Of a DNA stretch of 64,000 bases, positions 5,817-30,747 are shown one piece after another (within the stretch, counting starts at the first letter, position 1; every line of letters begins with the position of its first letter). A program made the position numbers and the translations under genes. The notes under the pieces were generated by a model, which made no database searches, was not told the DNA's origin, and saw nothing but the letters and a program-made list of their open reading frames with translations. The DNA comes from Deltaproteobacteria bacterium (GTDB taxonomy: Bacteria > Desulfobacterota > Syntrophia > Syntrophales > JACQWR01), in NCBI GenBank assembly GCA_016209105.1, contig JACQWR010000013.1:30623-94622 (forward strand). Reading direction: 5' to 3'.

Positions 5817-6719
5817 ATGATTCGCATTGGCGAGAACCTCAACGTGATGGTGAAGAAAATCGGGGCAGCTATGAAGGACCGTGATCCAAAACCCATCCAG
5901 GAACTGGCAATTGCCGAGACAAAGGCCGGCGTTGATTACATTGACATTAATCTGGGACCGGCACGAAAAGAAGGCGGGCCACTGATGGAATGGGTCGTGA
6001 AAACGGTGCAGGAGGTGACGGACCTGCCTTTGTACCTCGACACGATCAATACAGAGGCCCTCGAGGCGGGGCTCAAGGTTTATAAGAACAAGAAGGGTAG
6101 GGCGGTGATCAATTCTATCATGGCGCGGCCCGAGAGCATGGAAGCAAAATTCCCCCTGGCAAAGAAGTACGATGCCGGTCTGGTTGCCCTTCTCTGGGGC
6201 CCCGCCGGCCTTCCGCGCGATGCGAGCGAGCGCGGCGTCCTGGCGGCGGAATTGATGCAAAAAGCCATGGAGTTTGGAATTCCCAACGAGGATGTCTGGA
6301 TTGATCCCATCGTCACGCCGGTTACCAGTCCGCAGAGCCAGGTACAGGTGCCCAGCCTGGTGGAGTTCATGATGATGTTCAATGACCTCCAGGAGATGAC
6401 ACCGGGACTCAGGTCCACCTGTGGCCTTTCCAACGTTTCCAATGGCGCCCCGGATCATCTCCGTCCCATCATCAATCAGACGTACTTAATGATGCTGCAA
6501 CGGTACGGGATGGCTTCGGCGATCGTGGATGCCTTTGACGATGAGTTGAAAACATTTGCCGACAGCAAGAGGCCCGATCTCTCCGCTCTGGTCTATCGCG
6601 TAATGGATGGCGAAGACATTGACGTAAAATCGCTGAAGAAGGAACAGGCGGATTACGTAAAAACAACCAAGGTGCTGATGGGGAATATCCTTTACTCGGA
6701 TTCCTGGCTGGAACTCTAA
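5817..6719 (+). CDS. acsE: Methyltetrahydrofolate:corrinoid/iron-sulfur protein methyltransferase AcsE (pterin-binding domain)
   Basis: 300 aa. MIRIGENLNVM...DPKPIQELA...DYIDINLGPA...LYLDTIN...GLSNVSNG aligns closely with my recollection of Moorella AcsE (MLIIGERING...). RBS GAGGAGG lies upstream. Confidence 0.88.
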   Translation: MIRIGENLNVMVKKIGAAMKDRDPKPIQELAIAETKAGVDYIDINLGPARKEGGPLMEWVVKTVQEVTDLPLYLDTINTEALEAGLKVYKNKKGRAVINSIMARPESMEAKFPLAKKYDAGLVALLWGPAGLPRDASERGVLAAELMQKAMEFGIPNEDVWIDPIVTPVTSPQSQVQVPSLVEFMMMFNDLQEMTPGLRSTCGLSNVSNGAPDHLRPIINQTYLMMLQRYGMASAIVDAFDDELKTFADSKRPDLSALVYRVMDGEDIDVKSLKKEQADYVKTTKVLMGNILYSDSWLEL

Positions 6720-6796
6720 ATAAAGCCCCCGGTACTTAACAATCGCAGAAACAACTCTTTACGAAGCCATCGTCATAAAGAAAAAGGGAAGTGTCT

Positions 6797-7720
6797 ATGA
6801 AATCAGGAAGCCGTCTTGAAAGAGTTCTCGAAGCCGGTCATTTTGCTTTCACTGGTGAACTTGGCCCGCCTCAGGGGGCCAATGTGGAGGCGATCCGGAA
6901 AAAAGCGAGTCACCTGAAAGGGATCACCGATGCGGTGAACATCACCGATAACCAAACCGCTGTCGTGCGAATGGCAAGCTGGGCGGCTGCCTTGGTTGCC
7001 ATTCAGGAAGGGTTGGAACCAAACTATCAGATGGTCTGTCGAGACCGTAACCGCATCGCCATGCAAAGCGATATCCTGGGAGCCTCTGCTCATGGTATCC
7101 GGAATATGCTCTGTCTGTCCGGTGACCACCAGCAATTTGGCAACCATCCTTCAACCAAGGGGGTCTTCGACATTGACTCCATTCAACTGATCCATATGGT
7201 GAAGGGGATGCGAGATGACAAAAAATTTCTAAACGGCGATGAGATTGACGGATCACCGCAGATCTTCATCGGCGCCGCAGCAAATCCTTTTGCCGAACCG
7301 TTTGAATGGCGGGTCCATCGGTTGGCTAAGAAAATAAGTGCGGGGGCGGACTTTATCCAGACTCAGTGTATTTATGACATGAAACTGTTTCGGGAATGGA
7401 TGAAACAGGCCAACGATATGGGACTGACCGAAAAGGTTCACATCCTGGCGGGAGTGACTCCCCTCAAATCAGGAGGTATGGCCCGATACATGGCGACGAA
7501 TGTCTCCGGCATCATCATTCCCCAGGAAATCATCGACCGCGTAGCGAATGCCCCAAAAGGAAAGGCCGCCGAAGAAGGAATTAAAATCTGCGTTGAGCAG
7601 ATTGAGGAATTGAAAGAAATTAAAGGAGTGCATGGGATTCATCTGATGGCCATTGAATGGGAACACCGGGTGCCGGAAATCGCTGAACGGGCGAAGCTTA
7701 TCCCCAGACCTCAGGTTTAG
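6797..7720 (+). CDS. metF: Methylenetetrahydrofolate reductase, acetogen/MetVF type (copy 1)
   Basis: ORF 6791..7720, with ATG 6797 preferred. Motifs TGELGPP, NITDNQTAVVRM, CRDRNR, LCLSGDH and FIQTQCIYD. At 307 aa it is the same length as copy 2. Confidence 0.88.
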   Translation: MKSGSRLERVLEAGHFAFTGELGPPQGANVEAIRKKASHLKGITDAVNITDNQTAVVRMASWAAALVAIQEGLEPNYQMVCRDRNRIAMQSDILGASAHGIRNMLCLSGDHQQFGNHPSTKGVFDIDSIQLIHMVKGMRDDKKFLNGDEIDGSPQIFIGAAANPFAEPFEWRVHRLAKKISAGADFIQTQCIYDMKLFREWMKQANDMGLTEKVHILAGVTPLKSGGMARYMATNVSGIIIPQEIIDRVANAPKGKAAEEGIKICVEQIEELKEIKGVHGIHLMAIEWEHRVPEIAERAKLIPRPQV

Positions 7721-7797
7721 AACAGGGGAGCAGCCGGCTGACGCCGCCAACCGGGGAGATTTGGCGTTCTTGAAAGAGACCGACTAAGGAGAGATTC

Positions 7798-8463
7798 ATG
7801 TACGATTTGATCGAGGGTCCGTTCTTATCCCTTGCTTTCATCATATTTGTTTTGGGGCTTCTCTACCAGGGGAGCCGATTTTTCCAATTGACGAGGAAAA
7901 AAGAATGGATCGCGCCGCCCCTTCCCGGGGCGGAAAAACGGGTAAAAAAAAGCGTGGGGCAATTCATCATTGATGGCCTTGCTTCCGTGAAAGGGACCCT
8001 GTGGAAAACCGATCCGCTGATGATGATTGTGACATCGGCATTCCATGTCTGTCTGATTCTCGCTCCCATTTTTTTGCTTGCACATAACGTGCTCTTGGAT
8101 CAGTCTTGGGGCATCGGCCTTTGGAGTTTTCCCGAATCGTTCACCGATTGGTTGACGATCGTGGTTCTGATCTGCGTTGCATTTTTCCTGATGCGGCGCC
8201 TTTTTCTGGCTCGGGTTCGGGCCATCACTTCGTTCTATGATTATTTTGTTCTGCTCATTGCAGCAGCCCCCTTCCTCACCGGATACCTGGCCTATCATCA
8301 GTGGTTTGACTATCGTACCGTGATGATCCTTCACATTCTCACAGCAGAGCTCATGCTCATCACCGTTCCATTCACGAAATTAGGTCACATGCTCTTCTTC
8401 TTCCTGTATCGTTTCTTGATTGGAAGCGAGTACAGTTTTACACGGGGAAGCCGAACGTGGTAA
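7798..8463 (+). CDS. Integral membrane NarI/DsrM/HdrE-like cytochrome b subunit
   Basis: 221 aa with about 5 hydrophobic helices. Conserved His residues lie in the helices (SAFHVCLILAPIFLLAHNV, MILHIL). The C-terminal PFTKLGHMLFFF is typical of the nitrate-reductase-gamma-like family. RBS AAGGAGAG. Confidence 0.68.
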   Translation: MYDLIEGPFLSLAFIIFVLGLLYQGSRFFQLTRKKEWIAPPLPGAEKRVKKSVGQFIIDGLASVKGTLWKTDPLMMIVTSAFHVCLILAPIFLLAHNVLLDQSWGIGLWSFPESFTDWLTIVVLICVAFFLMRRLFLARVRAITSFYDYFVLLIAAAPFLTGYLAYHQWFDYRTVMILHILTAELMLITVPFTKLGHMLFFFLYRFLIGSEYSFTRGSRTW

Positions 8464-8516
8464 TGTAGTGGTAATGTAAATGAGATTTCTGAAATAGGGA
8501 ATACGGGGAGAACAAA

Positions 8517-8918
8517 ATGTCCAACCAGAATATAAAGCCCATCAACACCGGAGAGATCAAAGAAATGCTGAATCGCCAAAAAGGCAAAATGAAGCGATAT
8601 TTGTCTTTTTGCGCCCACTGCAGTCTTTGTGCAGATAGCTGTTTCTTATACAGGGCTCATAACAGAGACCCCCAATACATGCCCTCATACAAGGTCATTC
8701 AATCGTTAGGGAAATTATATAAAAAACGGGGTGAAGCGGATCGCCGACTCTTAACAGAGATCAAGGGGATCGTGTGGAGAAACTGTGTTCTCTGTGGCCG
8801 TTGTTATTGCCCGATCGGCATTCATATTCCCAGTATGATTGCTTTTGCCCGCAGCATCTGCCGATCCCAGGATGTCTATCCGCAAGGTGATGAGGCATCT
8901 TCGGAAAGCTGGTTATAA
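8517..8918 (+). CDS. Small 4Fe-4S protein resembling only the N-terminal ferredoxin domain of HdrD/DsrK (no CCG domains)
   Basis: 133 aa. The first cluster motif is CAHCSLCADSC. The second is irregular, CVLCGRCYCPIGI (C-x2-C-x2-C-x1-C-P instead of C-x3-C-P). The ORF ends at TAA with no CCG domain in any downstream frame. Confidence 0.55.
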   Translation: MSNQNIKPINTGEIKEMLNRQKGKMKRYLSFCAHCSLCADSCFLYRAHNRDPQYMPSYKVIQSLGKLYKKRGEADRRLLTEIKGIVWRNCVLCGRCYCPIGIHIPSMIAFARSICRSQDVYPQGDEASSESWL

Positions 8919-8995
8919 ATCCGAACGAGGCTTGAGGGACAGATTTGAAATTTGTCCCCAAGCACCGATGAAGGCTTTTTTGCAGGAGAATGAAC

Positions 8996-9406
8996 ATGAA
9001 ATTGGATTGCATCAGGGTTCTGATGATAATCATGTTGACGACGATGATCGCCTTAACCGGCTCCGTGCTCATGGCGCAGCAGGACAAGATGATTTTAGAT
9101 TCTTCGAATGCCTCTCAGAATAAAGGACGGCCGGCAGTAACGTTTTTCCATAACCGGCATGTTGAAGCAGGATTGGACTGTAAGGCGTGTCATCATCTTT
9201 ATCAAAAGGGGAAAAATATTCTCGACGAAAGTCAACTGGTGGAGGGAAATCCGGCAATCCGTTGTTCTCAGTGCCATGCTGCACAGTTGCGTCTCAATGT
9301 GCAACAGGCCTTTCATAGCCAGTGCATCGGTTGCCACGTAACATACCAGAAGGAAAAGAAAAAAACAGTCCCCCGGTATTGTGGGGAATGCCATGCCCGG
9401 AAATAA
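8996..9406 (+). CDS. Periplasmic tetrahaem cytochrome c (cytochrome c3/class III-like)
   Basis: Four CxxCH motifs (CKACHH, CSQCH, CIGCH, CGECH). Hydrophobic signal peptide LMIIMLTTMIALTGSVLMAQQ, plus the c3-like VTFFHNRH. ATG 8996 sits 7 nt after AGGAG (8984-8988), so it is preferred over ATG 8990. Confidence 0.8.
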   Translation: MKLDCIRVLMIIMLTTMIALTGSVLMAQQDKMILDSSNASQNKGRPAVTFFHNRHVEAGLDCKACHHLYQKGKNILDESQLVEGNPAIRCSQCHAAQLRLNVQQAFHSQCIGCHVTYQKEKKKTVPRYCGECHARK

Positions 9407-9435
9407 ATTTCTCAACATTTACCTGGAGGGGAAAA

Positions 9436-10110
9436 ATGATCGTTGCGGAGAGAAAGCCTATTGATGAAATCAAGGAGATGGTGAAATCGTTCAAGAGAGT
9501 GTTGAATGTTGGTTGTGGAGGGTGTACTTCCATTTGTCATTCTGGTGGTCAAAAGGAAGTTGATCTCTTAAATGAAGAACTAAATAAAGCTTTTGAACTC
9601 GACCATATTCCACTCCAGATCGATAGCTTTACGATTGAGAGGCAATGCAATGCCGATTTTTATCTCCTGTTGGATGAGAAGATGCAATCCTATGACGCTG
9701 TCCTTTCGATGGCGTGCGGCGCCGGGGTCCAATTTCTCTCTGACCGAATTCCTGAAAAACCTGTCTTTCCGGCTTTAAACACTATTTTTGTCGGAGTGGA
9801 TCGTGATCTTGGATGGTTTGAGGAAAACTGCCGTTCCTGTGGAGAATGTGTTCTTGGAAAAACAGGAGGAATATGCCCGGTAACAAGATGTGCCAAGAGT
9901 CTGTTCAACGGACCCTGCGGAGGAACTGCTCATGAAGGTAAATGTGAAGTGAGCAAAGATACCCCCTGTGCCTGGTATGAGATTCATAAACGCTTAAAGC
10001 AACAAAACAGGTTGGAAAACATTCTCCTCATAACACCTGCACGAGAATGGCGAAATCAAACTCGGGGCACTCTGGTTCAGGAAGCGTATAAGGAACGATA
10101 TGCCAAATGA
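9436..10110 (+). CDS. metV: MetV, small Zn/FeS subunit of MetVF-type methylene-THF reductase (MTHFR C-terminal-like domain), copy 1
   Basis: Motifs VGCGGCTSICHSGG, MACGAGVQ, CRSCGECVL and CPVTRCAKSLFNGPCGG. The start was moved from ORF 9322 to ATG 9436, which follows GGAGGGG. The upstream extension overlaps the cytochrome gene. 224 aa against 222 aa for copy 2. Confidence 0.8.
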   Translation: MIVAERKPIDEIKEMVKSFKRVLNVGCGGCTSICHSGGQKEVDLLNEELNKAFELDHIPLQIDSFTIERQCNADFYLLLDEKMQSYDAVLSMACGAGVQFLSDRIPEKPVFPALNTIFVGVDRDLGWFEENCRSCGECVLGKTGGICPVTRCAKSLFNGPCGGTAHEGKCEVSKDTPCAWYEIHKRLKQQNRLENILLITPAREWRNQTRGTLVQEAYKERYAK

Positions 10111-10151
10111 ATAGAGTGGCGCAGAACGTAAGGGAAAAGGTCTGAGTAACG

Positions 10152-11714
10152 ATGTATCAATCCATTATTGAACTGGCGAATGACGGCATACTGGTCTTCA
10201 ATGACCGGCTGCAGGTGGAATATGCAAATCGCGCCATCTCGCAGATCACTGGGTATGACCATGCCAGAATAATGGGAATGAACATTGCCCGGCTCCTCGG
10301 CGACAAAAGCCGAGCGCTGCTGGAAGACATATTTTCCCATCCGGAAACGTACGGCGAAAAGACCTGCACGGAAATTCAGTTTAGCACCGCAGCCGGCAAT
10401 ATCAGATATGCGGAAATCTGCATTGCTCTTTCAATTCCTTCCGACGGCTCCGACAAAGCCAACGCCTATATCCGTGATATAACGGATCAGAAACGGATAG
10501 AGAATGAGCTCCGTGAGGCCAATGAATTTTTTCAGAATCTGATTTCCAGTTCCGTGGACGGGATCATAGCCGCCGATATGAAGGGAAATATCTTTATATT
10601 CAATCAAGCGGCGGAGCAGCTAACGGGTTATTCCGCGGACGAGGTTATCGGCAAAGTGCACATAACACAGCTCTATCCCGAGGGCGTAGCCAGTGATATC
10701 ATGAAGAAACTCCGCAGTTCCAACAATGGGGGTGTCGGTAAATTAAATCCCTCTCAGCTCAATCTGATCAGTAAAACCGGCGAGAAAATTCCCTTTCAGC
10801 TTTCCGCAACATTGATTTATGACGGCACCGGCAGTGAAATTGCAAGCGTGGGGATATTTACCGATTTACGGAAACGCCTCGACATGGAACGCAAGCTTCA
10901 GGAAACGCATATGCAACTCGTCAGTTCCGAGAAGCTCGCATCGTTAGGAAAGCTTGCTGCCGGCATTGCCCACGAGATTAACAATCCTCTCGGCGGGATA
11001 CTTATTTACGCGAGTCTCATGATAGAAGATATTCCCGACGATGACCCCAAACGGCAGGATTTGGTCCGTATCGTTCAGGAAGCGGGCCGTTGCAAGGACA
11101 TCGTGAAAAGTCTTCTTGAGTTTGCGCGCCAGAACGAACCGACGATGGAGCCGGTGGATATCAACCGCGCCATAACCGAAGGGTTATTTTTTCTGGAAAA
11201 CCAGGCTCTTTTTCATAATATCAAGATTGTGAAAAAACTATTGCCGTCACTTCCCTTTGCGCGCGGCAATGCGGGTCAGCTCAAGCAGGTCTTTATGAAT
11301 ATTATCGTCAATGCGGCGGAAGCCATGCACGGTAACGGCACCTTAACGATTTCCACCTCCTTTAATCAGGAACGCAAGCACATAGCCATTGAATTCACCG
11401 ATACCGGCGAAGGCATCCCCGAAGAAAACCTTACCCGGATTTTCGACCCATTTTTTACTACGAAGGAAATCGGCAAGGGAACGGGATTGGGGTTAAGCAC
11501 GTCTTATGGTATCATAGAAGCTCATGGAAGCAAGATAGAGGTGAGAAGCAAAGTGGGTGTCGGCAGTACCTTTGCCATTTTGCTCGCACCGTACCCCGAG
11601 ATACAGCCGATCATCGAAAATTCCTTAAACAATGTGCTCGGCACTCTGGGTAAGCATGACAGGTTTGAGGACGTTAAAGGACACCACGAGCAGACGCAAC
11701 ATCCACCCCTGTGA
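10152..11714 (+). CDS. Cytoplasmic PAS-PAS sensor histidine kinase (paralog 1)
   Basis: Two PAS-like segments, H-box AAGIAHEINNPLGG, N box NIIVNAAEAM, G boxes DTGEGI and GTGLGLS. No transmembrane segments. Confidence 0.85.
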   Translation: MYQSIIELANDGILVFNDRLQVEYANRAISQITGYDHARIMGMNIARLLGDKSRALLEDIFSHPETYGEKTCTEIQFSTAAGNIRYAEICIALSIPSDGSDKANAYIRDITDQKRIENELREANEFFQNLISSSVDGIIAADMKGNIFIFNQAAEQLTGYSADEVIGKVHITQLYPEGVASDIMKKLRSSNNGGVGKLNPSQLNLISKTGEKIPFQLSATLIYDGTGSEIASVGIFTDLRKRLDMERKLQETHMQLVSSEKLASLGKLAAGIAHEINNPLGGILIYASLMIEDIPDDDPKRQDLVRIVQEAGRCKDIVKSLLEFARQNEPTMEPVDINRAITEGLFFLENQALFHNIKIVKKLLPSLPFARGNAGQLKQVFMNIIVNAAEAMHGNGTLTISTSFNQERKHIAIEFTDTGEGIPEENLTRIFDPFFTTKEIGKGTGLGLSTSYGIIEAHGSKIEVRSKVGVGSTFAILLAPYPEIQPIIENSLNNVLGTLGKHDRFEDVKGHHEQTQHPPL

Positions 11715-11722
11715 GGTCATAG

Positions 11723-12286
11723 ATGAACATGAACGAATCAGGAATGCAAACAGGCAGTTCTTTTCTTGAGGAAATAATCAGAGAGAGCAATGTGGATATT
11801 CGGGCATGCTATCAGTGCCAGAAGTGTTCTGCAGGGTGTCCTGTTGTCTCCGCCATGGATATGTATCCCAACCAGGTCATCCGCCAAATTCAGTATGGAC
11901 GGCGTGAAAAGGTGCTCGGCTCAAAAAGTATCTGGGTGTGCGCGTCCTGCCATACCTGCAGTGTCCGCTGTCCCAACGATATTGATTTTGCCAAGGTCAT
12001 GGACACCTTGAGACATATTGCGCTCCGATCAGGCATTATCGCCGGTGAGAAGGACGTGCCTGTTTTTCACATGGTATTTCTGGAGAGCATTAAACGTACG
12101 GGCCGCATCCACGAGTTGTCCCTCATTCTCCGATTCAAATTAAAAACGAGAGATTTCCTCAAGGATGCAGGACTGGGATGGCAGATGTTTCGTCGCGGGA
12201 AAATAAAAATTCTGCCTCAAGTTTATTCCGCTCGAAGGGAGATAAAAGAGCTATTCAACACCTATGAGAAAGGGGCTGCACAGTGA
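11723..12286 (+). CDS. hdrC: Heterodisulfide reductase subunit C-like 4Fe-4S protein
   Basis: CYQCQKCSAGCPV and CASCHTCSVRCPNDID. Its stop overlaps the hdrB start (GTGA). Confidence 0.85.
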   Translation: MNMNESGMQTGSSFLEEIIRESNVDIRACYQCQKCSAGCPVVSAMDMYPNQVIRQIQYGRREKVLGSKSIWVCASCHTCSVRCPNDIDFAKVMDTLRHIALRSGIIAGEKDVPVFHMVFLESIKRTGRIHELSLILRFKLKTRDFLKDAGLGWQMFRRGKIKILPQVYSARREIKELFNTYEKGAAQ

Positions 12287-13134
12287 AAGAAGCAACCTAC
12301 TATCCCGGGTGCTCCCTCCACGGGACAGCCCGCGAATATGACGAATCATTCCGGGGGGTATCGAAACTGCTGGAGGTGAATCTTCACGAATTGGAGGATT
12401 GGACCTGCTGCGGCTCCACCTCCGCGCACTGCACCGACGAGGCATTGTCCGTTGCGCTCCCGGTTCGGAATTTAAATCTTGCCGGGAAATATGACCGGGA
12501 GATGATCGTGCCCTGCGTGGCATGTTACAGTCGCTTTAAAGCCGCCCAACAGGGTGCAAAGGAACACCCGGAATATCTCCCTACTCCTTATGAAGAAAAA
12601 GTTGCCGTCCACTACGCGCTTGACTTTTTTTGTGATTCCTCCATGATTGAAGCGCTGAAAACGAAAACGGCAAAGCCGCTTTCCGGCCTGAAGGTTGCCT
12701 GCTACTACGGCTGCCTTGCCGTCCGGCCTCCCGACCTGACCGGCGTGAAGCAGTATGAAAATCCTGATCATATGGATCGTCTGATGGAGATACTGGGCGC
12801 CGAAGCGGTGCCTTGGTCATACAAAACCGATTGCTGCGGTGCGAGTCTTGTCATGACACGGACCGACATTGTGATCACCCTTAGTCAAAAAATCCTCTCT
12901 ATGGCGCTGGAAGCGGGCGCTGATTGCATCGTAACGGGCTGTACCATGTGTCATGCCAATCTCGATACGCGACAGGCCAGCCTTTCCGATGCTTCAGGCA
13001 ACAAAAATAAAATTCCCGTCTTTTATTTTACTGAACTTATGGGTTTGGCAATGGGGCATCGGGAAGTGAAAAAGTGGCTCAGTCGCCACGTTACTGATCC
13101 GATTAAGCTCCTTTCAAGCAAAGGATTGCTGTAA
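12283..13134 (+). CDS. hdrB: Heterodisulfide reductase subunit B-like protein (two CCG domains)
   Basis: WTCCGSTSAH and KTDCCGASL CCG motifs. YYPGCSLHG N-terminus. GTG start coupled to hdrC. Confidence 0.85.
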   Translation: MKEATYYPGCSLHGTAREYDESFRGVSKLLEVNLHELEDWTCCGSTSAHCTDEALSVALPVRNLNLAGKYDREMIVPCVACYSRFKAAQQGAKEHPEYLPTPYEEKVAVHYALDFFCDSSMIEALKTKTAKPLSGLKVACYYGCLAVRPPDLTGVKQYENPDHMDRLMEILGAEAVPWSYKTDCCGASLVMTRTDIVITLSQKILSMALEAGADCIVTGCTMCHANLDTRQASLSDASGNKNKIPVFYFTELMGLAMGHREVKKWLSRHVTDPIKLLSSKGLL

Positions 13135-13314
13135 AATAAGAGATCTCTTCTCATGAGCAGAAATCGAGCTTTATGCGGACGTGTCAAGCCGGATGGTGAA
13201 CGTGCTGCGTAACCCCGCTCTGATTTTTGAAAAATGATATCCGCATTATACATCACCAAGATTTAGCTATACGACGACATTGTAAGCAACATCTGAGGCG
13301 CATTTTTTCGCCGT

Positions 13315-13335
13315 CGCCCCTATTAAACGGGGGCG
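13315..13335 (+). terminator. Candidate intrinsic terminator / hairpin after hdrB
   Basis: Stem CGCCCC (13315-13320) pairs with GGGGCG (13330-13335), followed by CGTTTCTTT. A second hairpin is TGAGCCC (13344-13350) with GGGCTCA (13363-13369). The T-tract is imperfect. Confidence 0.3.
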
Positions 13336-13448
13336 CGTTTCTTTGAGCCCCGCTTGGTAGACGGGCTCAATGGCGCAAGAGAAGCAATGATATCCTCACA
13401 GGGAAGCTTTGCCCTCAAGGGAGGGGAGCTTCATAAAAGGAAACGGGT

Positions 13449-16400
13449 ATGGATGTGAAAGTCGGGGCAGTGATGGTTGTGGGCGGAGGGATAGCCGGCA
13501 TTCAGGCTTCCCTCGATCTGGCGGAATCCGGTTACTACGTTTATCTCATCGAATCTTCCCCTGCCATTGGCGGCCGCATGGCGCAGTTGGACAAGACGTT
13601 TCCGACGAACGATTGCGCCATGTGTATCGTATCTCCGAAGTTGGTAGAGGCGGGTCGTCATTTAAACATCGAGATTCTCACCAATTCCGAATTAATTTCC
13701 TTAGGAGGAGAGCCGGGCCGCTTTACGGCGCGCGTGCGTCGTGCACCCCGTTATGTGGATACGGCGAAATGTACGGGTTGCGCCGATTGCGTAGCGGTAT
13801 GCCCGGTCGGGTTATCGAACGAATTTAATGAGGGATTGGATGAGCGGAAGGCAATCTATCGTCCCTATCCACAGGCGGTTCCCAATTCATTTTTGGTGAC
13901 GAAGCGCGGGACGAGTCCCTGCAAGGCTGCGTGCCCTGCGGAGACGAGCGCCCAGGGGTACGTTGCGTTGATCCAGGCCGGTCACTACGAGGAGGCGCTG
14001 GAGGTAATACGGGAATACAATCCCTTTCCCGCTTCGGTGGGGAGGGTATGCACGCATCCCTGTGAGAGGGAATGCAGTCGCGGGAAGGTTGATGCGCCGG
14101 TATCAATATGCGCTTTGAAGCGGTTTACCGCGGACTGGGTGTACGAGCACGGCAGCTCATTGAACAAGGCGGCAGGTGTCGGCGACGGCATTTCGGGGAG
14201 GCCCGAGGCAAAGGTGGCGGTAGTTGGTTCCGGACCCGCCGGTTTGAGTTGCGCGCATCATCTGGTTCGAATGGGGTACGGGGCAGTGGTATTCGAGTCA
14301 TTGCCGGTTGCTGGCGGCATGATGCGGGTAGGGATACCGGCATACCGTTTACCGCGAGAGGTGTTGCAGCGGGAGATTGATGTCATCGTTTCCGAGGGCG
14401 TGGAGATACGCCTGAACAGCCCCGTTCGGGACATAAACGGGTTATTTGCTGAGGGATACAGCGCGGTATTTTTGGCAATAGGCGCGCATGAGCCGCAACG
14501 TTTGGGCATCGAGGGAGAGGATGCGATCGGGGTATATCACGGCGTTCCTTTTTTACAGTCGGTGAGCTTGGGCGGTAAGGGGGGGACATTGCCCACCGTG
14601 GGCGATCGGGTGGTGGTCGTCGGAGGCGGCAACACGGCGGTGGATGCGGCGCGCACCTCACTTCGTTTGGGAGCCCGCGAGGTGGTGATGCTCTATCGTC
14701 GTTCCCGGGAGGAGATGCCGGCGAGCGGCTGGGAGATAGAACAGGCCGAGCAGGAGGGCGTCAAACTGGAATTGCTGACAGCTCCCGTGGCGGTAGAGGT
14801 AAAGGAGGGCCGGGTCGTCGGGGTAACGTGTCAGCGCATGGAGTTGGGCGAGCCTGACGAGAGCGGGCGCAGGCGTCCCGTGCCGGTGGCTGGTTCGGAA
14901 TTTTCCATTGGAGCGGACACGATGATCGCAGCGGTCGCGCAGGCGCCTGAGATATCGTTTTTGGATTCATCCCACGGTTTGGAGGTAAGTTCCCGTGGCA
15001 CCTTTGTGGTTGATCAAAAGACGCTGGCCACGAAGCGTGCGGGTGTTTTTGCCGGGGGCGATGTCCATCGCGGCCCGGGGATACTGATCGAGGCAATCGC
15101 GGATGGCAGGCGAGGCGCCCTTTCCATTGATCGCTATTTGAGAGGGGTTGATCTCCTCACCGCTCGTGAGGAGGTTCCCCTGCCGGTAGTCGCACTTACG
15201 GACGATGAGATAGACCATATCATTGAGGCGGGGAAGGTGGATTTATCTTCGCGGGTGTCCGTGGCCACGGCGCCGATTTCGGAACGCGTGCAAGATTTCC
15301 GCGAGGTGGAACTCTCATTGACGGAGGAGGAAGCAAAGCGTGAAGCTGCGCGTTGTCTTGAATGCGGGATCTGTTCGGAGTGCCATTTGTGTGTTCGGGT
15401 TTGCAAGGCAGGTGCGATAGATCACCAGGAGGCGGCTCGTGAGGATGAACTTCTGGTGGGGTCGGTGATTTTGGCGCCGGGGTATTCCTTATATGATCCC
15501 GGGTTGTCGCCGGAGTTGGGGTACGGCCGCTACGCGAACGTGGTGACGAGCATGGAGTTCGAGCGGATCCTCTCCGCCTCCGGACCTTTTGCGGGTCATG
15601 TGACCCGACCTTCGGATCATCGGGAGCCGAAGAAGATCGCCTTTTTGCAGTGCGTCGGCTCCCGGAACAAGGACAATGACTACTGCAGCTCGGTGTGCTG
15701 CATGTACGCCACAAAGGAAGCGGTTATTCTGAAAGAGCACCTGCCCGCTGCGGAGCCCACCATCTTCTATATGGACATCCGCGCCCAGGGAAAAGATTTT
15801 GATCTTTATTACGAACGGGCAAAAAAGGATTACGGCGTCCGTTACGTCCATTCCCATATCTCCCGCATCGCGGAGAAACCGGCGAGCGGTAATCTTCTGA
15901 TCAGGTATATAGATGCCGAGAAGGGGATACAGGAAGAAGAGTTCGACATGGCGGTTCTTTCCGTGGGCATGAAACCGGCGCCGCAGGCGCGGGAGCTTGC
16001 CGGGAGGCTCGGCGTCTCCCTCGACGGGAACGGGTTCTGCCTCTCCGATGGCTTTTCACCGCTCAACACCTCGGTGCCGGGCGTCTTTGCCTGCGGGGTA
16101 TTTCAAGGTCCCAAGGATATTCCGGAAACGGTCGTTCAGGCAGGCGCTGCGGCCGAGGCCGCTTCTGCCTTCCTTGCCGAGGCGAGAGGAACCCTCACGA
16201 GAAAGAAAGAGTATCCACCGGAGCGCGATGTAACCGCCCAGGAGGCCCGTATCGGCGTCTTCGTATGCCATTGCGGGATCAACATTGGGGGCATTGTCAA
16301 CGTTCCGGAGGTGAAGGAGTATGCACGAACGCTTCCCAACGTGTTCCATGTTGACGAGAACCTCTACACCTGTTCTCAGGACACGCAGGAGAAGATCAAG

Positions 16401-17927
16401 AAGGCCGTAGATGAATACCATTTAAATCGCGTCGTGGTGGCTTCCTGTTCGCCCCGCACCCATGAACCGCTCTTTCGGGAAACCATCCGGGAGATTGGCC
16501 TGAATAAATATCTTTTCGAGATGGCGAACATCCGCGATCAGTGTTCCTGGGTGCACATGAAACTTCCCCTCGAGGCCACTCAGAAGGCAAAAGAGTTGCT
16601 CAGCATGACGGTGGCAAAAGCCCGCTTGATCAGGGCGCTGGACGAGCCGCTTATGGAAATTAACAAGAAAGCCCTCGTCATCGGCGGCGGCCTGGCGGGA
16701 ATGAAGGCGGCTCTCGGTCTGGCGGAACAGGGTTTTGCCTCCGTCCTGGTGGAGCGGGAGAAAGAGCTTGGGGGAAACCTACGCCATATTTATCATACCC
16801 TGGAAGGAAAGGACGTTCAGCAATTTCTCGAGAGTTCCGTCCGGGAAGTTTTATCCAATCCCCTGATAGAAGTTGTAACGGACGCAGAGATAAAGAGCAT
16901 CAACGGCTACCTGGGCAACTTCCACACGGCGATATCGGCGGGAGGCAGCGAACGGGAATATGAACATGGGGTCGTGATCGTTTCTGTAGGAGCGCAGGAA
17001 AGCCGCCCGTCCGAATATCTCTATGGAAAGGACAACCGCGTCGTCACGCAGAGCGAACTGGAAGAGCGGATTGCCCGCCGGCCTGAAGAAGTAAAGACCT
17101 ATCGAAATATTGTGATGATCCAGTGCGTCGGTTCCCGCATTCCCGAACGACCCAATTGCAGTCGCATCTGTTGTTCCGTGGCGGTGAAAAACGCCCTCGC
17201 GCTCAAGGAGATTTCCCCTGATGCGAATATAACCGTCATCTACCGGGATATGCGCACCTATGGGCTCATGGAGCAGTATTACACGCTGGCTCGAAAAAAA
17301 GGCGTCACCTTTATCCCCTACGACGTGGAGGCAAAGCCGGAACTGAGTGCCGCCGGGGGTGATCTGAATCTGAGCGTGCGGGACAGGATGGTGAACGAGG
17401 AACAGCTCATCACCCCCGATCTTGTCGTGCTCTCCAGTGCGGTTGTGCCCTATGAGAATGACACTTTGGCAAAGATGCTGAAGGTGCCTCTGACGGCAGA
17501 TAAATTCTTCCTCGAAGCGCATATGAAACTGCGGCCGGTGGATTTTGCCACCGATGGCGTATTTCTTGCCGGCATGGCGCACTTCCCCAAGACCATCAGC
17601 GAGACAATAGCGCAGGCAGGAGCGGCCGTGTCGCGGGCTACCGCTGCCATCGCCAAAGGCTTTGTAAGCGTCCTTCCCACGATCTCCTGCGTAGACCAGA
17701 GCCGTTGCGTCGGCTGCGGCCTTTGCGAATCCCTCTGTCCGTTCAATGCCATCCGGGTGGGCGAGACGGAAAAAGGGAAGAAGGCCGAGACGATTGCGGC
17801 ATCGTGCAAAGGCTGCGGCATCTGCGCTGCCAGTTGCCCCCAGAAGGCAGCCGCTATACATCATTTTACGGACGAAGAGTTATACGCTCAAATAGAGGCA
17901 TTGAAAGATATCGCGGTAATGCAGTGA
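13449..17927 (+). CDS. Giant HdrA-class flavoprotein with inserted NfnB/GltD-like NAD(P)H oxidoreductase module and a second HdrA-like half (HdrL-type), copy 1
   Basis: 1492 aa.
- HdrA start: VVGGGIAGIQASLDLA, FPTNDCAMCI, CTGCADCVAVCP.
- GltD/NfnB-like part: SPCKAACPAETSAQGY, VAVVGSGPAGLSCAHHL, VVVVGGGNTAVDAART, GVFAGGDV.
- Then CLECGICSECHLCVRVC.
- Second half: GVFVCHCGINIGG, ALVIGGGLAGMKAAL.
- C-terminal 2x4Fe-4S: CVGCGLCESLCP, CKGCGICAASCP. Confidence 0.85.
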   Translation: MDVKVGAVMVVGGGIAGIQASLDLAESGYYVYLIESSPAIGGRMAQLDKTFPTNDCAMCIVSPKLVEAGRHLNIEILTNSELISLGGEPGRFTARVRRAPRYVDTAKCTGCADCVAVCPVGLSNEFNEGLDERKAIYRPYPQAVPNSFLVTKRGTSPCKAACPAETSAQGYVALIQAGHYEEALEVIREYNPFPASVGRVCTHPCERECSRGKVDAPVSICALKRFTADWVYEHGSSLNKAAGVGDGISGRPEAKVAVVGSGPAGLSCAHHLVRMGYGAVVFESLPVAGGMMRVGIPAYRLPREVLQREIDVIVSEGVEIRLNSPVRDINGLFAEGYSAVFLAIGAHEPQRLGIEGEDAIGVYHGVPFLQSVSLGGKGGTLPTVGDRVVVVGGGNTAVDAARTSLRLGAREVVMLYRRSREEMPASGWEIEQAEQEGVKLELLTAPVAVEVKEGRVVGVTCQRMELGEPDESGRRRPVPVAGSEFSIGADTMIAAVAQAPEISFLDSSHGLEVSSRGTFVVDQKTLATKRAGVFAGGDVHRGPGILIEAIADGRRGALSIDRYLRGVDLLTAREEVPLPVVALTDDEIDHIIEAGKVDLSSRVSVATAPISERVQDFREVELSLTEEEAKREAARCLECGICSECHLCVRVCKAGAIDHQEAAREDELLVGSVILAPGYSLYDPGLSPELGYGRYANVVTSMEFERILSASGPFAGHVTRPSDHREPKKIAFLQCVGSRNKDNDYCSSVCCMYATKEAVILKEHLPAAEPTIFYMDIRAQGKDFDLYYERAKKDYGVRYVHSHISRIAEKPASGNLLIRYIDAEKGIQEEEFDMAVLSVGMKPAPQARELAGRLGVSLDGNGFCLSDGFSPLNTSVPGVFACGVFQGPKDIPETVVQAGAAAEAASAFLAEARGTLTRKKEYPPERDVTAQEARIGVFVCHCGINIGGIVNVPEVKEYARTLPNVFHVDENLYTCSQDTQEKIKKAVDEYHLNRVVVASCSPRTHEPLFRETIREIGLNKYLFEMANIRDQCSWVHMKLPLEATQKAKELLSMTVAKARLIRALDEPLMEINKKALVIGGGLAGMKAALGLAEQGFASVLVEREKELGGNLRHIYHTLEGKDVQQFLESSVREVLSNPLIEVVTDAEIKSINGYLGNFHTAISAGGSEREYEHGVVIVSVGAQESRPSEYLYGKDNRVVTQSELEERIARRPEEVKTYRNIVMIQCVGSRIPERPNCSRICCSVAVKNALALKEISPDANITVIYRDMRTYGLMEQYYTLARKKGVTFIPYDVEAKPELSAAGGDLNLSVRDRMVNEEQLITPDLVVLSSAVVPYENDTLAKMLKVPLTADKFFLEAHMKLRPVDFATDGVFLAGMAHFPKTISETIAQAGAAVSRATAAIAKGFVSVLPTISCVDQSRCVGCGLCESLCPFNAIRVGETEKGKKAETIAASCKGCGICAASCPQKAAAIHHFTDEELYAQIEALKDIAVMQ
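13480..15720 (+). repeat. Dispersed repeat, copy A (5' ~2.2 kb of HdrL-type gene 1), highly similar to 30780-33040
   Basis: Line-by-line comparison gives 55/60 identical nt for 13561-13620 vs 30871-30930 and again for 13621-13680 vs 30931-30990. An 82-nt stretch has one mismatch. Boundaries are approximate. Confidence 0.75.
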
Positions 17928-21820: not shown

Positions 21821-23548
21821 ATGAAATTACAAGCAATTTCTGTTTCGCAATATAGAAGCATCTCTTCTGCTAAACGAATTCGTCTAGAACGTTCAACTAT
21901 TTTAATTGGACCGAATAATGAAGGTAAATCAAACATTCTTCGTGGATTAGTTCTTGCGATGACAGTTTTGACTAGAGGTCGTCACCGCATGATGTTGAGG
22001 GACCGATTTCGGGCAACTTATAATGCACTTGGATACAATTGGGAGAAGGATTATCCTATTAATCTTCAAAAAAAGAACCCGAACGGGGAGACAGAAATAG
22101 TCCTAGAATTTGCGCTTGAGAATGAAGAATATGAAGAATTTTATAGGGAGGTCAAGAGTAGAATAACTGGGAGTTTGCCGATTCGAATAGGAATTGGCAA
22201 GAATGATGTATCAATTAAATTCAATAAAAAAGGCAAAGGCTCTGCAGCATTATCTAAGAAGTCTGCTGTAATTGCTGATTTCGTTTCCAGTAGAATTGAG
22301 TTTGAGCATATACCGGCTGTGCGAACCGCCCAATCTGCACAAAATATTGTATCAGATCTCGTTAGTCGTGAATTATATGGATTAGAAAATAATCCTGATT
22401 ATAAATTAGCGTTACAAAAAATTGAGGAACTTCAAACGCCGATTTTAAAAACGCTTTCAGATAGTATATTTAATACACTCAAACAATTTTTACCTCAGGT
22501 TAAAAAGGTAAAAATAGAATTACCACAATCAGAGAGGATTCAGGCATTTCGTAGAGGCACCGAAATTTCGGTTGATGATGGAACGATGACACCTTTGCAG
22601 TACAAAGGTGATGGAGTGCAAAGTTTAGCGGCCTTAGGAATAATTCGCCATGCATCTGATAAATCCGCAAAAGGCAAGAAGTTTGTTATTGCTATAGAGG
22701 AGCCAGAATCTCATCTACATCCCAATGCGATCCATGAACTAAAGGAAGTCATCGATGGGCTCAGTGAGAAACATCAAATTATTATTACATCACATAACCC
22801 ACTATTTGTGGATAGGCGGATTATATCCAACAATATAATTGTTAATGATCGCAAAGCAAAGCCAGCCAAGAATGTTGAAGAAATAAGAAAGATATTAGGT
22901 GTTCGTGCATCTGACAATCTTAGAAATGCCGAGATGGTCTTGGTGGTCGAGGGCGAAGATGACATTATTAGCCTAAAAGCTATTATTCAAGAATATTCTG
23001 GATATTTGAAGGACGCTATTAAAAATGGATCACTTGCTTTCGATTCATTGAATGGCGGCACAAACCTGTCATATAAAATATCCTTACTCCGCGATGCAAT
23101 TTGTCTGTACCATGTATTCATAGACGATGATCGCTGCGGAAGGGAATCCTATAAGAAAGCTAAAGATAGTGGCTTGCTTGAAGATGGCCAGATTAATTTT
23201 GCAAAAGCTCACGGTAGGAACGAAAGCGAAATCGAAGATTTGTTTAATCCAGATGTGTATAAGGCAGCAATCGAAAATAAATATCGTATTAAACTTTCAA
23301 TTCCCAAATTTCGGGGGAATAAGAAGTGGTCCGAAAGAGTGAAAGATGTTTTTGGTGCGCATGGTAAACCTTGGGATGATTCCATTGAGAAAGATTTAAA
23401 GTATATAGTTGCCAAGCTAGTTTCATCAAATCCACAGGACGTGATAAATAACCATGACAAAATGATCATTGATTCACTTATAATGGCATTGGAAGGCAGA
23501 TTAAAGGAAAGGGCAGAGGCCCAACGAGCCGCTTCAGTGGATGACTGA
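21821..23548 (+). CDS. OLD-family nuclease (N-terminal ABC-like ATPase + C-terminal TOPRIM), orphan / class-1-like
   Basis: 575 aa. Walker A GPNNEGKSN, signature-like YKGDGVQSL, Walker B FVIAIEEPESHLHP, SHNPLF. TOPRIM MVLVVEGEDDIISLK and VFIDDDRCG. AT-rich: sampled 60-nt lines give 28-37% G+C. No adjacent helicase gene. Confidence 0.8.
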   Translation: MKLQAISVSQYRSISSAKRIRLERSTILIGPNNEGKSNILRGLVLAMTVLTRGRHRMMLRDRFRATYNALGYNWEKDYPINLQKKNPNGETEIVLEFALENEEYEEFYREVKSRITGSLPIRIGIGKNDVSIKFNKKGKGSAALSKKSAVIADFVSSRIEFEHIPAVRTAQSAQNIVSDLVSRELYGLENNPDYKLALQKIEELQTPILKTLSDSIFNTLKQFLPQVKKVKIELPQSERIQAFRRGTEISVDDGTMTPLQYKGDGVQSLAALGIIRHASDKSAKGKKFVIAIEEPESHLHPNAIHELKEVIDGLSEKHQIIITSHNPLFVDRRIISNNIIVNDRKAKPAKNVEEIRKILGVRASDNLRNAEMVLVVEGEDDIISLKAIIQEYSGYLKDAIKNGSLAFDSLNGGTNLSYKISLLRDAICLYHVFIDDDRCGRESYKKAKDSGLLEDGQINFAKAHGRNESEIEDLFNPDVYKAAIENKYRIKLSIPKFRGNKKWSERVKDVFGAHGKPWDDSIEKDLKYIVAKLVSSNPQDVINNHDKMIIDSLIMALEGRLKERAEAQRAASVDD

Positions 23549-24132: not shown

Positions 24133-24797
24133 TCGTAGGTAATCGCAAGGAATTTCAGGAGATCGTGGGGATGCTGGGCTCCAACAGGCGGGTGCTTCTG
24201 TTGGGGTGCAATGAGTGCGTGACGGTTTGCGGCGTGGGCGGCGAGAAGGAAGTAGGGGTGCTCGCATCGGAATTGCGCATTCACTGGAAGACAGCCGGGG
24301 AGACCTTCGAGGTCAAAGAGCATACGCTGGAGCGGCAGTGTGATTACGAGTACATAGATCAGGTGCGCGGTTTTGTCGGCGATTATGACGTCATTTTATC
24401 GATGGCCTGCGGGGCTGGGGTTCAATATGTCGCGGAGGCCTATAAGACAAAACTGGTGATGCCGGCGGTGAATACGACCTTTCTGGGAGTCACCCTGGAG
24501 CAGGGGGTATGGAGTGAGCGCTGCCAGGGCTGCGGCGCCTGCATCCTCGATATGACGGGGGGAGTCTGTCCCATCGCACGCTGCGCGAAGAGTCTCATGA
24601 ACGGCCCCTGCGGCGGTTCGTCGGGAGGGAAGTGCGAGGTGGACAAGGAGGTGGATTGCGGCTGGCAGTTGATAATTGACCGTCTCACGGAGCTTGGACA
24701 GTTGGATCGTTACGAAGATATCATACCGGTAAAGGATTGGCGCAGCAGCCGCGAAGCAGGTCCGCGCAAGAGAATAAGGGAGGATTTGAGACTGTGA
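24129..24797 (+). CDS. metV: MetV small subunit of MetVF-type methylene-THF reductase, copy 2
   Basis: LGCNECVTVCGVGG, MACGAGVQ, CQGCGACIL and CPIARCAKSLMNGPCGG. ATG 24129 overlaps the mvhD stop (ATGA), so the ORF 24060 extension was rejected. Confidence 0.82.
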   Translation: MIVGNRKEFQEIVGMLGSNRRVLLLGCNECVTVCGVGGEKEVGVLASELRIHWKTAGETFEVKEHTLERQCDYEYIDQVRGFVGDYDVILSMACGAGVQYVAEAYKTKLVMPAVNTTFLGVTLEQGVWSERCQGCGACILDMTGGVCPIARCAKSLMNGPCGGSSGGKCEVDKEVDCGWQLIIDRLTELGQLDRYEDIIPVKDWRSSREAGPRKRIREDLRL

Positions 24798-29185: not shown

Positions 29186-29262
29186 GTTTCTTCCCTGACG
29201 GTAATATAAATGTAATGTCATGGGGAAAAGGTGACGTAAACAATTTCAATGAGGATAACACC

Positions 29263-29835
29263 ATGGAAATGTTAACGGTATCCCAGGCAAGCAAGTACTG
29301 TTCTGTTCCAACGAAAACGATACTGAGCTGGATTGAATCGGGCGATCTTTCCGCCCAGAAAACCGTCGGCGGCCATCGCCGCATCAGGAAGGAAGACCTT
29401 GACACCGTTCTGGTGAAGAAGGGCATCCCGCTCCCTGGTAATGCAAAAAAAGAGGCGAGAAAAAAAATACTGGTGGTTGATGACGATAGAATTATCGTGG
29501 AGACGATCGTTCAAGCGCTGGAGGAAGATGAATACGGATACGAGATGATTTCGGCATCCGACGGTTTCGAGGCGGGTCTGCAGGTCAGTCATTTCAAACC
29601 CGATCTCCTTATCCTTGACATCATGATGCCCGACATAAACGGATACGAGGTCTGCAGAAGAATCAAAGAGAATGCCGCGATAAAGGATATTAAGATTATT
29701 GTGTTATCGGCCTATCTCAATGAAGAGGCATTTGATCAGATGAAGACGTATGGGGCGGACGCCTGTTTTTCCAAACCCCTGCCGCTCGCCCAGTTGAAGC
29801 ATGAGGTTGCAAAGCTTTTAGGACTGAAAACGTGA
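29263..29835 (+). CDS. Response regulator with N-terminal excisionase/MerR-type HTH and C-terminal receiver domain
   Basis: The HTH is LTVSQASKYCSVPTKTILSWIESGDLSAQKTVGGHRRIRKEDL. The receiver is KILVVDDD...LLILDIMMPDINGYEVCRRIK...KIIVLSA. ATG 29263 follows GAGGA (29251-29255). Confidence 0.75.
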   Translation: MEMLTVSQASKYCSVPTKTILSWIESGDLSAQKTVGGHRRIRKEDLDTVLVKKGIPLPGNAKKEARKKILVVDDDRIIVETIVQALEEDEYGYEMISASDGFEAGLQVSHFKPDLLILDIMMPDINGYEVCRRIKENAAIKDIKIIVLSAYLNEEAFDQMKTYGADACFSKPLPLAQLKHEVAKLLGLKT

Positions 29836-29842
29836 GGAGATT

Positions 29843-30724: not shown

Positions 30725-30747
30725 CGGGAAGGGGAACCTTTGACGGT

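Follow-up and report, generated by a model that had tools for sequence, protein, structure and literature searches.

The window analysed here, a stretch of 64,000 nucleotides (nt) from a Deltaproteobacteria bacterium of the Syntrophales (contig JACQWR010000013.1, positions 30,623 to 94,622), carries a gene cluster in which a cytochrome b, a short iron-sulfur (FeS) protein and a tetrahaem cytochrome c are encoded between metF and metV. From the sequences, we consider it probable that these five genes encode a single membrane-bound enzyme, a methylene-tetrahydrofolate (methylene-THF) reductase or methyl-THF dehydrogenase, in which a transmembrane electron conduit of the Tmc/Hmc type carries MetVF in place of the CCG module. 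The broader proposal that such clusters represent a fifth, respiratory type of methylene-THF reductase (MTHFR), in which MetVF would be wired directly into a transmembrane conduit related to Tmc and Hmc, and which would be spread over at least four phyla of anaerobes that have not been cultured, is in our judgment evenly poised. The evidence consists of gene content, domain content, predicted topology, a strict co-occurrence of genes and matching groups in phylogenetic trees. The genes of the cluster, of which the middle three are referred to as the module, are the following.

metF copy 1: 6791..7720, + strand; flavin-binding catalytic subunit of methylene-THF reductase, module-linked type (PF02219, 135.1 bits)
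Cytochrome b: 7798..8463, + strand; TmcC/HmcE-like dihaem cytochrome b membrane anchor of the NarI superfamily, 221 amino acids (aa)
Short FeS protein: 8517..8918, + strand; cytoplasmic 2x[4Fe-4S] protein of 133 aa, equivalent to the N-terminal domain of TmcB/HmcF without the CCG domains
Cytochrome c: 8990..9406, + strand; TmcA-like (type II c3) periplasmic tetrahaem cytochrome c3, 138 aa
metV copy 1: 9436..10110, + strand; FeS/zinc subunit of MetVF, module-linked type (PF12225, 121.2 bits)

The intergenic distances from metF to metV are, in order, 77, 53, 71 and 29 nt, and purine-rich sequences resembling ribosome-binding sites (AAGGAGAG, GGGGAGAA, GCAGGAGAA and GGAGGGGAAAA) lie 5-9 nt 5' of the starts. 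No terminator-like hairpin was found on the + strand in any of these four spacers. All + strand open reading frames of at least 50 aa between metF and the histidine kinase gene that follows metV are accounted for in the window. A preliminary description, made from this DNA alone, had recognized a cytochrome b, a small ferredoxin-domain protein and a cytochrome c with four CxxCH motifs, in the same orientation, with short spacers and ribosome-binding sites. The reading frames and profile searches confirm these identities, and the layout is as described. The resemblance to a miniature DsrMK/Hme/Tmc-type complex noted there also holds, the nearest models being TmcC/HmcE, TmcB/HmcF and TmcA.

The FeS protein matches Fer4_17/Fer4_8 (E = 3e-8), and contains the conserved motifs CxxCxxCxxxC and CxxCxxCxCP. 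Its alignment to the TmcB model covers only positions 24-136 of 430 (88.8 bits; cut-off, 735), and that to the HmcF model only positions 43-154 of 457 (104.6 bits, slightly above the TmcB score); the alignment to DsrK is likewise limited to the first third. The protein terminates approximately 35 residues past the second cluster motif, at the point where TmcB runs on into its CCG domains. No Pfam match to a CCG domain was obtained for the window protein, and no CCG tripeptide is present in the 61 short homologues examined, i.e., the window protein and those of 60 loci; the tripeptide is present in 14 of 16 long FeS proteins (TmcB). The two groups differ also in the second motif, which is CxxCxxCxC in 61 of 61 short proteins, followed by proline in 60 of them, and CxxCxxCxxxCP in 16 of 16 long ones. 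In the window protein this motif comprises residues 90-99 (window 8784-8813), and is two residues shorter than the CxxCxxCxxxCP of TmcB, HdrC and HdrD. Database searches returned 458 homologues of the FeS protein, of which the best 120 are all 133-145 aa long and at least 74% identical. The possibility that the gene is a truncated or pseudogene form of TmcB is ruled out by this consistent shortness (61 of 61 examined, and the best 120 of 458); in addition, the 71-nt spacer 3' of the gene is too small to hold remnants of CCG domains.

The absence of CCG domains bears on a first alternative, namely that the three genes form an ordinary, independent Tmc-like complex, serving DsrC or another thiol/disulfide or ferredoxin acceptor, which happens to neighbour metF and metV. 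In its favour, the best family matches of the three proteins are TmcC, TmcB/HmcF and TmcA, and the GC content of the module and metV (0.45-0.49), lower than that of the upstream acs genes (0.54-0.59), could suggest an insertion. However, an FeS protein of this kind is devoid of the domains needed for disulfide chemistry. Membership in a characterized complex with another function, which the preliminary description had named as a result that would count against it, finds no support either, because none of the proteins attains the cut-off of its model (TmcC, TmcB or TmcA) and there is no CCG domain. We therefore regard an independent Tmc-like complex as very improbable, also in view of the following survey.

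To survey gene neighbourhoods, the cytochrome b alignment was scanned against one genome per GTDB species, which yielded 80 loci, and the open reading frames of these loci were searched with the window proteins. A short FeS gene is found beside that of the cytochrome b in 58 of the 80 genome loci, and metV and metF are adjacent in every one of the 58. Full-length TmcB (423-439 aa, trimmed) is encoded in 16 of the 80, none of which has metFV adjacent. Five further loci are cut by contig ends (L014, L033, L041 and L060, plus L029, with a partial cytochrome b), and what is left of them fits the short-FeS pattern. In the last, L070, no FeS protein was detected and metFV is not adjacent; in the tree, its cytochrome b clusters with those of the canonical Tmc loci. 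Two distinct metagenome contigs, L001 and L002, also hold the cytochrome b and short FeS genes with metV and metF. In L001 the five genes are ordered as in the window, but other genes lie upstream, and L002 has metF-cytochrome b-FeS-metV, with no cytochrome c, amid unrelated genes such as queF and dodecin. In a Leptospirales locus, L053, the five genes are isolated among unrelated genes. Thus, the functional link to MetF and MetV that the preliminary description had suggested is supported, at the level of gene neighbourhoods, by 58 genome loci and two metagenome contigs, and is never seen with the 16 canonical TmcB loci.

Going by their record titles, the loci belong to the Desulfobacterota/Thermodesulfobacteriota (including Syntrophales), Myxococcota, Planctomycetota and Spirochaetota, with single metagenome-assembled genomes (MAGs) labelled Thermodesulfovibrionia and Acidobacteriota. 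The association of metF, cytochrome b, FeS and metV genes, for which a survey of Desulfobacterota had originally been proposed, hence extends beyond that phylum, to at least four. At least five gene orders occur.

metF-b-FeS-c4-metV: Syntrophales-type, frequently with acsB-acsC-acsE 5'
b-FeS-metV-metF-16-haem cytochrome
metF-b-FeS-metV-16-haem cytochrome
b-FeS-(c4)-metV-metF
Versions without any cytochrome c gene

Linkage that is kept through rearrangement across phyla is a classical signature of a functional unit. An independent Tmc-like complex is difficult to reconcile with this linkage to metV and metF, preserved in several orders in at least four phyla and lacking in each of the 16 canonical Tmc loci, and with L053 and L002, in which metFV are the sole redox genes near the module. 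As a side observation, in L008 and L015 ('MFD' MAGs) acsB and the FeS, cytochrome c and metV genes appear to be split into two open reading frames, probably through frameshift errors in the assembly.

The same loci bear on a second alternative, in which the module feeds the downstream HdrC, HdrB, HdrL and MvhD, and anchors a bifurcating Hdr-MetVF supercomplex to the membrane. The genes hdrC-hdrB-hdrL-mvhD do lie within 2-4 kb downstream on the same strand, both in the window and in its Syntrophales relatives, and MvhD/HdrCBA has been proposed as the link between MetVF and the membrane in Sporomusa ovata (PMC9430772). Nevertheless, the loci from Spirochaetota, Myxococcota and Planctomycetota, as well as L002, have no neighbouring Hdr genes, whereas MetV and MetF are always there; and in the window a histidine kinase gene intervenes between metV and hdrC. 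We give this explanation very little weight.

The family has two forms, both without the CCG domain and with MetVF: a Tmc-type form, seen in the window, and an Hmc-type form. In clusters of the latter type, metV/metF are directly followed by genes for an HmcA-like cytochrome with 16 haems, an HmcB-like Fer4_11 protein and, if the locus is long enough, an NrfD-like protein. This version was seen in Myxococcota, Planctomycetota and some Desulfobacterota (L032, L034, L036-L039, L042-L044, L046-L048, L051, L052, L059 and L077); in L046 the cytochrome gene is absent, and those for the HmcB-like and NrfD-like proteins are present.

Sequence trees separate the linked proteins from their canonical counterparts. 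In a neighbour-joining tree, the 16 cytochromes b from canonical loci form one clade, and all MetFV-linked sequences fall outside it. MetFV-linked cytochromes b from four lineages score 167-209 bits against the TmcC model, under its cut-off of 240, which the canonical TmcC of Desulfacinum infernum passes (252.2 bits). The module-linked MetVs group apart from the Hdr-linked MetV2 type, and their sub-groups mirror the cytochrome b tree; such matching groups would not be expected of an independent Tmc-like complex. A search of 1.8 billion cluster representatives with a profile returned 10 clusters at E <= 1e-30, among them fusions of cytochrome b with the FeS protein; P0244 (375 aa) and P0248 (220 aa, partial) are natural fusions of this type with the short FeS protein, and carry CxxCxxCxCP. 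Separately, we observed that the module-linked MetV has a fixed length of 224 aa and retains 65-87% identity between phyla (71% in the case of a Polyangia protein), where the partner cytochrome b drops to approximately 46% identity. This gap indicates that either MetV is very strongly constrained or the cluster has spread laterally.

The cytochrome b is matched over its full length by the NCBIfam models TmcC (NF045723; 201.1 bits, under the cut-off of 240) and HmcE (178 bits, under the cut-off of 275), and marginally by Pfam Nitrate_red_gam (PF02665; 21.9 bits, cut-off 22.9). Hydropathy analysis predicts five hydrophobic helices with a positive-inside topology; the N-terminus is predicted to be outside, because the loops rich in lysine and arginine are all on one side. 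All five histidines, i.e., His83, His96, His167, His179 and His197, are invariant in relatives. His83 and His96 are in the second transmembrane helix, and His179 and His197 are in and after the fifth, as in the ligand pattern of NarI, HdrE and DsrM; these four are invariant in sets of 11 and 19 relatives. The five invariant histidines fit two bis-histidine b haems, which would be stacked across the membrane. The top five Foldseek hits for the cytochrome b are NarI chains, at probabilities of 0.89-0.97; with E = 0.13-0.28 and a TM-score of about 0.44 they are not significant, and the query model is poor. A sequence search of the PDB with the cytochrome b, the FeS protein and MetV gave no match to any chain.

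The cytochrome c has an N-terminal hydrophobic Sec signal, CxxCH motifs at residues 64, 92, 112 and 131, and four further histidines, which give it the potential for bis-histidine ligation. It matches Pfam Cytochrom_CIII (E = 1.3e-11), and scores 76.1 bits against the TmcA model NF045722 (cut-off, 114). Among PDB entries it is matched best by 3cao, a cytochrome c3 of the Desulfovibrio type, and next by HmcA structures. The mature protein is basic, with 16 lysine and arginine versus 9 aspartate and glutamate residues.

Taken together, these features suggest the following mechanism. NarGHI, DsrMK, HdrDE, Tmc and Hmc each have an FeS subunit on the cytoplasmic side that binds to a dihaem cytochrome b and passes electrons on to a catalytic module. 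In TmcB, HmcF and DsrK, it is the ferredoxin domain that joins the cytochrome b to the CCG domains, where catalysis takes place. In the cluster described here, the cytoplasmic thiol/disulfide (CCG) module of TmcB/HmcF would have been lost, and MetV-MetF would stand in its place. MetVF is the probable catalytic partner because the relay domain is kept, the CCG domain is gone, and MetV and MetF are the sole constant neighbours. MetV, the FeS/zinc subunit, has been reported to strongly stimulate methylene-THF reduction catalysed by MetF (PMC8760232), and Tmc and Hmc are believed to pass electrons between periplasmic cytochrome c3 and a cytoplasmic acceptor (PMC4215793). We infer that the five proteins associate physically, and that electrons may pass between the periplasmic tetrahaem c3, the distal haem b and the proximal haem b, and from there, through the two [4Fe-4S] clusters of the FeS protein, the FeS clusters of MetV and the flavin of MetF, to the methylene-THF/methyl-THF couple, each step being conceivable in either direction. 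If the complex works reductively, methylene-THF (E0' ~-200 mV) would receive electrons that flow inward from H2 or formate in the periplasm or from external donors, and a proton-motive force would arise from charge separation and scalar protons. Inward electrogenic flow to methylene-THF is also the scheme proposed for S. ovata (PMC9430772). In the oxidative direction, i.e., during acetyl-CoA oxidation or syntrophy, the membrane potential could help to drive the electrons of the methyl group to low-potential periplasmic cytochromes; reversed electron transport, akin to such an outward flow from methyl-THF, has been proposed for Thermacetogenium phaeum (PMC6895022).

A third alternative overlaps with this mechanism, and differs from it solely in the partner on the membrane side, which would be a quinone instead of, or besides, cytochrome c. 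That is, the complex would be a methyl-THF:menaquinone oxidoreductase with a NarI-like quinone/quinol site, and the cytochrome c would be an accessory branch. The affinity of the cytochrome b to the NarI/HdrE/DsrM superfamily, apparent from the Nitrate_red_gam score and the NarI chains that top the Foldseek results, speaks for this alternative, as do several clusters in which no cytochrome c is encoded (L002, L046 and many of those from Spirochaetota). Most clusters, however, encode a tetrahaem or 16-haem periplasmic cytochrome c right beside the module. In this alternative, methyl-THF (-200 mV) would donate its electrons to menaquinone (-74 mV); for the reductive direction, menaquinol is too positive to reduce methylene-THF unless energy is put in. 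Also in favour of a quinone, quinone-analogue-dependent MTHFR activity has been reported for T. phaeum and S. ovata (PMC6895022, PMC9430772), and the Hmc-type versions carry an NrfD-like subunit, from a family proposed to interact with quinone (PMC4215793). On the other hand, Tmc and Hmc, the nearest characterized relatives, are described as exchanging electrons with Tp1-c3, and are regarded as conduits for periplasmic cytochrome c3 (PMC4215793), so that the label 'quinone-type' given to the module in the preliminary description is not established. What keeps this alternative alive is the existence of clusters devoid of cytochrome c and the NrfD-like protein of the Hmc-type forms; we consider it unlikely, though more plausible than either of the other two.

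The arrangement itself is not in doubt. Positions 6500-10400 lie on one contig in each of two independent groundwater metagenome runs, with 0 differences, and contigs of near-identical strains from a different study bridge the metF-cytochrome b and the cytochrome b-FeS-cytochrome c-metV junctions. A misassembly, the other concern that had been raised, is ruled out by the identical independent assemblies over all junctions together with the synteny in dozens of MAGs. As to expression, no RNA runs holding sequence of the window were found. In one peat metatranscriptome, however, contigs map to all five genes of a related locus, L023, and bridge its cytochrome b-FeS (6542-6744) and FeS-cytochrome c (7020-7242) junctions. 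These data show that a cluster of the L023 type is expressed in the environment; they are compatible with co-transcription, and are no proof of a single transcript.

Several observations weigh against a dedicated membrane-bound MTHFR. As to co-transcription, which the preliminary description had proposed as a check, two of the L023 junctions are bridged, but the cytochrome c-metV junction is unbridged in the peat metatranscriptome with this reference, and the metatranscriptome contigs may include DNA. The surveyed loci are phylogenetically non-independent, and the contrast of 58 versus 0 overstates the number of independent events. The cytochrome c gene is missing from L002, L046 and about half of the Spirochaetota loci; because some clusters are without it, the periplasmic cytochrome is no obligatory partner. 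The short FeS protein has an unusual, shortened spacing (CxC) in its second cluster motif, and the AlphaFold2 models are of low confidence, with a pLDDT of 58.7 for the cytochrome b and 49.0 for the FeS protein. The 120 top-ranked MetV homologues and the 150 top-ranked FeS cluster representatives include no fusion of MetV to the FeS protein or to the cytochrome b. Lastly, the cluster family is known from sequences, and all of the loci that carry it are from uncultured MAGs.

The cluster lies in a Wood-Ljungdahl/Hdr island, with genes for carbon monoxide dehydrogenase, acetyl-CoA synthase, the large subunit of the corrinoid FeS protein and a methyltransferase, followed by housekeeping genes. 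The island also encodes three MetF paralogues, two MetVs, HdrC/B, an HdrD-like protein, MvhD and two HdrL-type proteins, each of approximately 1500 aa. The organism also has two other MetF systems, which stand beside Hdr-type genes. Copies 1 and 2 are 59% identical for MetF and 43% identical for MetV, in which all cysteines align and the same set is present in both. The overlap of metV and metF in copy 2 (GTGA), noted in the preliminary description, is real; the start codon GTG begins at 24794, and the stop codon TGA occupies 24795-24797. The gene that follows metV copy 1 is the following.

PAS-domain histidine kinase: 10152..11714, + strand; PAS, HisKA and HATPase_c domains, 41 nt 3' of metV

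This kinase may be a regulator that responds to redox state, and may or may not belong to the unit. The L001 cluster is likewise trailed by a PAS kinase, and the Spirochaetota and Myxococcota versions are without one. Two alike units, 10152-17927 and 27245-35253, each run from a PAS histidine kinase through an HdrL-type protein of approximately 1500 aa. In relatives (L001, L009-L012 and others), a MetF3-like gene is directly 3' of metV1; that of the window is at 29843-30724, behind the second kinase and a response regulator, which suggests duplication or rearrangement. Between hdrB and the hdrL-type gene, a 314-nt stretch (13135-13448) has no gene assigned. At 21821-23548, between an hdrA-like gene and metV2 and followed by a 511-nt gap to 24059, is an AAA_15/AAA_21 (AbiEii/OLD-like) ATPase gene with a GC content of 0.38 and a GC content at third codon positions (GC3) of 0.31, amid a region of approximately 0.57 GC. 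This ATPase gene seems to be a defence or mobile gene that was acquired recently and interrupts the Hdr-MetVF cluster. GC and GC3 also dip over 6791-12286 (metF1, the module, metV1, the kinase and hdrC), in comparison with the acs genes on the upstream side and hdrL on the downstream side; GC3 of metV1 is 0.40. A recent horizontal insertion, which such a dip (GC of 0.45-0.51 versus 0.57-0.59) could be taken to indicate, is not supported, as the arrangement is common to the whole Syntrophales clade.

It has been a matter of debate for decades whether the reduction of methylene-THF, which releases more energy than any other step of the Wood-Ljungdahl pathway, is coupled to the membrane. According to a review from 2021, genomes gave no evidence of a membrane-localized MTHFR, and a quinone-linked scheme requires an unidentified membrane-integral protein (PMC8578096). 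Membranes of S. ovata catalyse H2-dependent methylene-THF reduction, and no transmembrane subunit was identified (PMC9430772). In the paper on the HRM2 genome, two clusters are given as 'TmcBCA' and a label 'MetF-ABC' appears without explanation, and no link is drawn between them. Full-text searches, which do not extend to subscription journals, gave no published description of metF-cytochrome b-FeS-metV, so that an earlier mention is possible. The cluster provides concrete candidate genes for a link between MTHFR and the membrane, which are common among anaerobes of groundwater, peat, sediment and landfill, and a signature with which to search for them, i.e., a short FeS protein with CxxCxxCxC adjoining metV. 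If our proposal is true, the complex would supply the membrane-integral connection that has been missing between the Wood-Ljungdahl pathway and respiration. Methylene-THF would then be a terminal acceptor for periplasmic H2, formate or extracellular electrons, with energy conserved chemiosmotically; in reverse, the complex would offer the thermodynamically awkward electrons of methyl-THF an exit assisted by the proton-motive force, in syntrophs and complete oxidizers. If functional, it would change the estimated ATP yields of acetogenesis, CO2 fixation, syntrophic acetate oxidation and complete oxidation in these lineages.

[quoted passage not shown] It differs in the order of the genes, which is C-B'-A and is set between metF and metV; in its TmcB homologue, which is without CCG domains and has the second motif shortened to CxxCxxCxCP; and in its mature cytochrome, which is basic, whereas TmcA is acidic. 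All three window proteins are under the NCBIfam equivalog cut-offs. No fourth Tmc-type gene was recognized among the open reading frames of the window, where no search was aimed at the TmcD profile. The likely cytoplasmic partner is MetVF, whereas that of Tmc is DsrC. With HmcABCDEF, the high-molecular-weight cytochrome complex, the window shares an FeS protein resembling HmcF and a cytochrome b resembling HmcE; it has no HmcA, HmcB, HmcC or HmcD, and its HmcF homologue is cut down to the ferredoxin domain. The signature that we propose for the module, namely an FeS protein of approximately 130-160 aa with CxxCxxCxxxC and CxxCxxCxC, beside a TmcC-like cytochrome b, metV and metF, is found in the window, in the 58 linked genome loci and in L001 and L002.

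Four types of MTHFR have been described, namely MetF, MetVF, MetVF-RnfC2 and MetVF-HdrCBA-MvhD (PMC8760232). Like types II-IV (PMC8760232), the window has both MetF (PF02219) and MetV (PF12225). The partners in those types (none, RnfC2 or HdrCBA-MvhD) are soluble, whereas the window adds an integral-membrane cytochrome b, an FeS protein with two clusters, and a cytochrome c on the periplasmic side; moreover, its metF and metV are split by three genes and do not overlap. As regards type IV (HdrCBA-MvhD-MetVF), in which hdrCBA and mvhD adjoin metVF, the window has hdrC, hdrB, hdrL and mvhD downstream of copy 1, behind the histidine kinase gene. As for the MTHFRs of S. ovata and T. phaeum, methylene-THF would be the end, or methyl-THF the start, of a membrane chain with cytochromes and quinone (PMC9430772, PMC6895022, PMC8578096). 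Those enzymes have no transmembrane subunit encoded with metVF, and their contact with the membrane has been ascribed to MvhD/HdrCBA or to no particular protein, whereas in the window a dedicated putative anchor is encoded inside the metF-metV cluster. Finally, the module shares with NarI of NarGHI, with DsrMK and with HdrDE a five-helix dihaem b anchor, a docked FeS subunit and the pairs of histidines in helices 2 and 5; its catalytic partner would be a folate enzyme, in place of the molybdoenzyme or CCG disulfide reductase of those systems.

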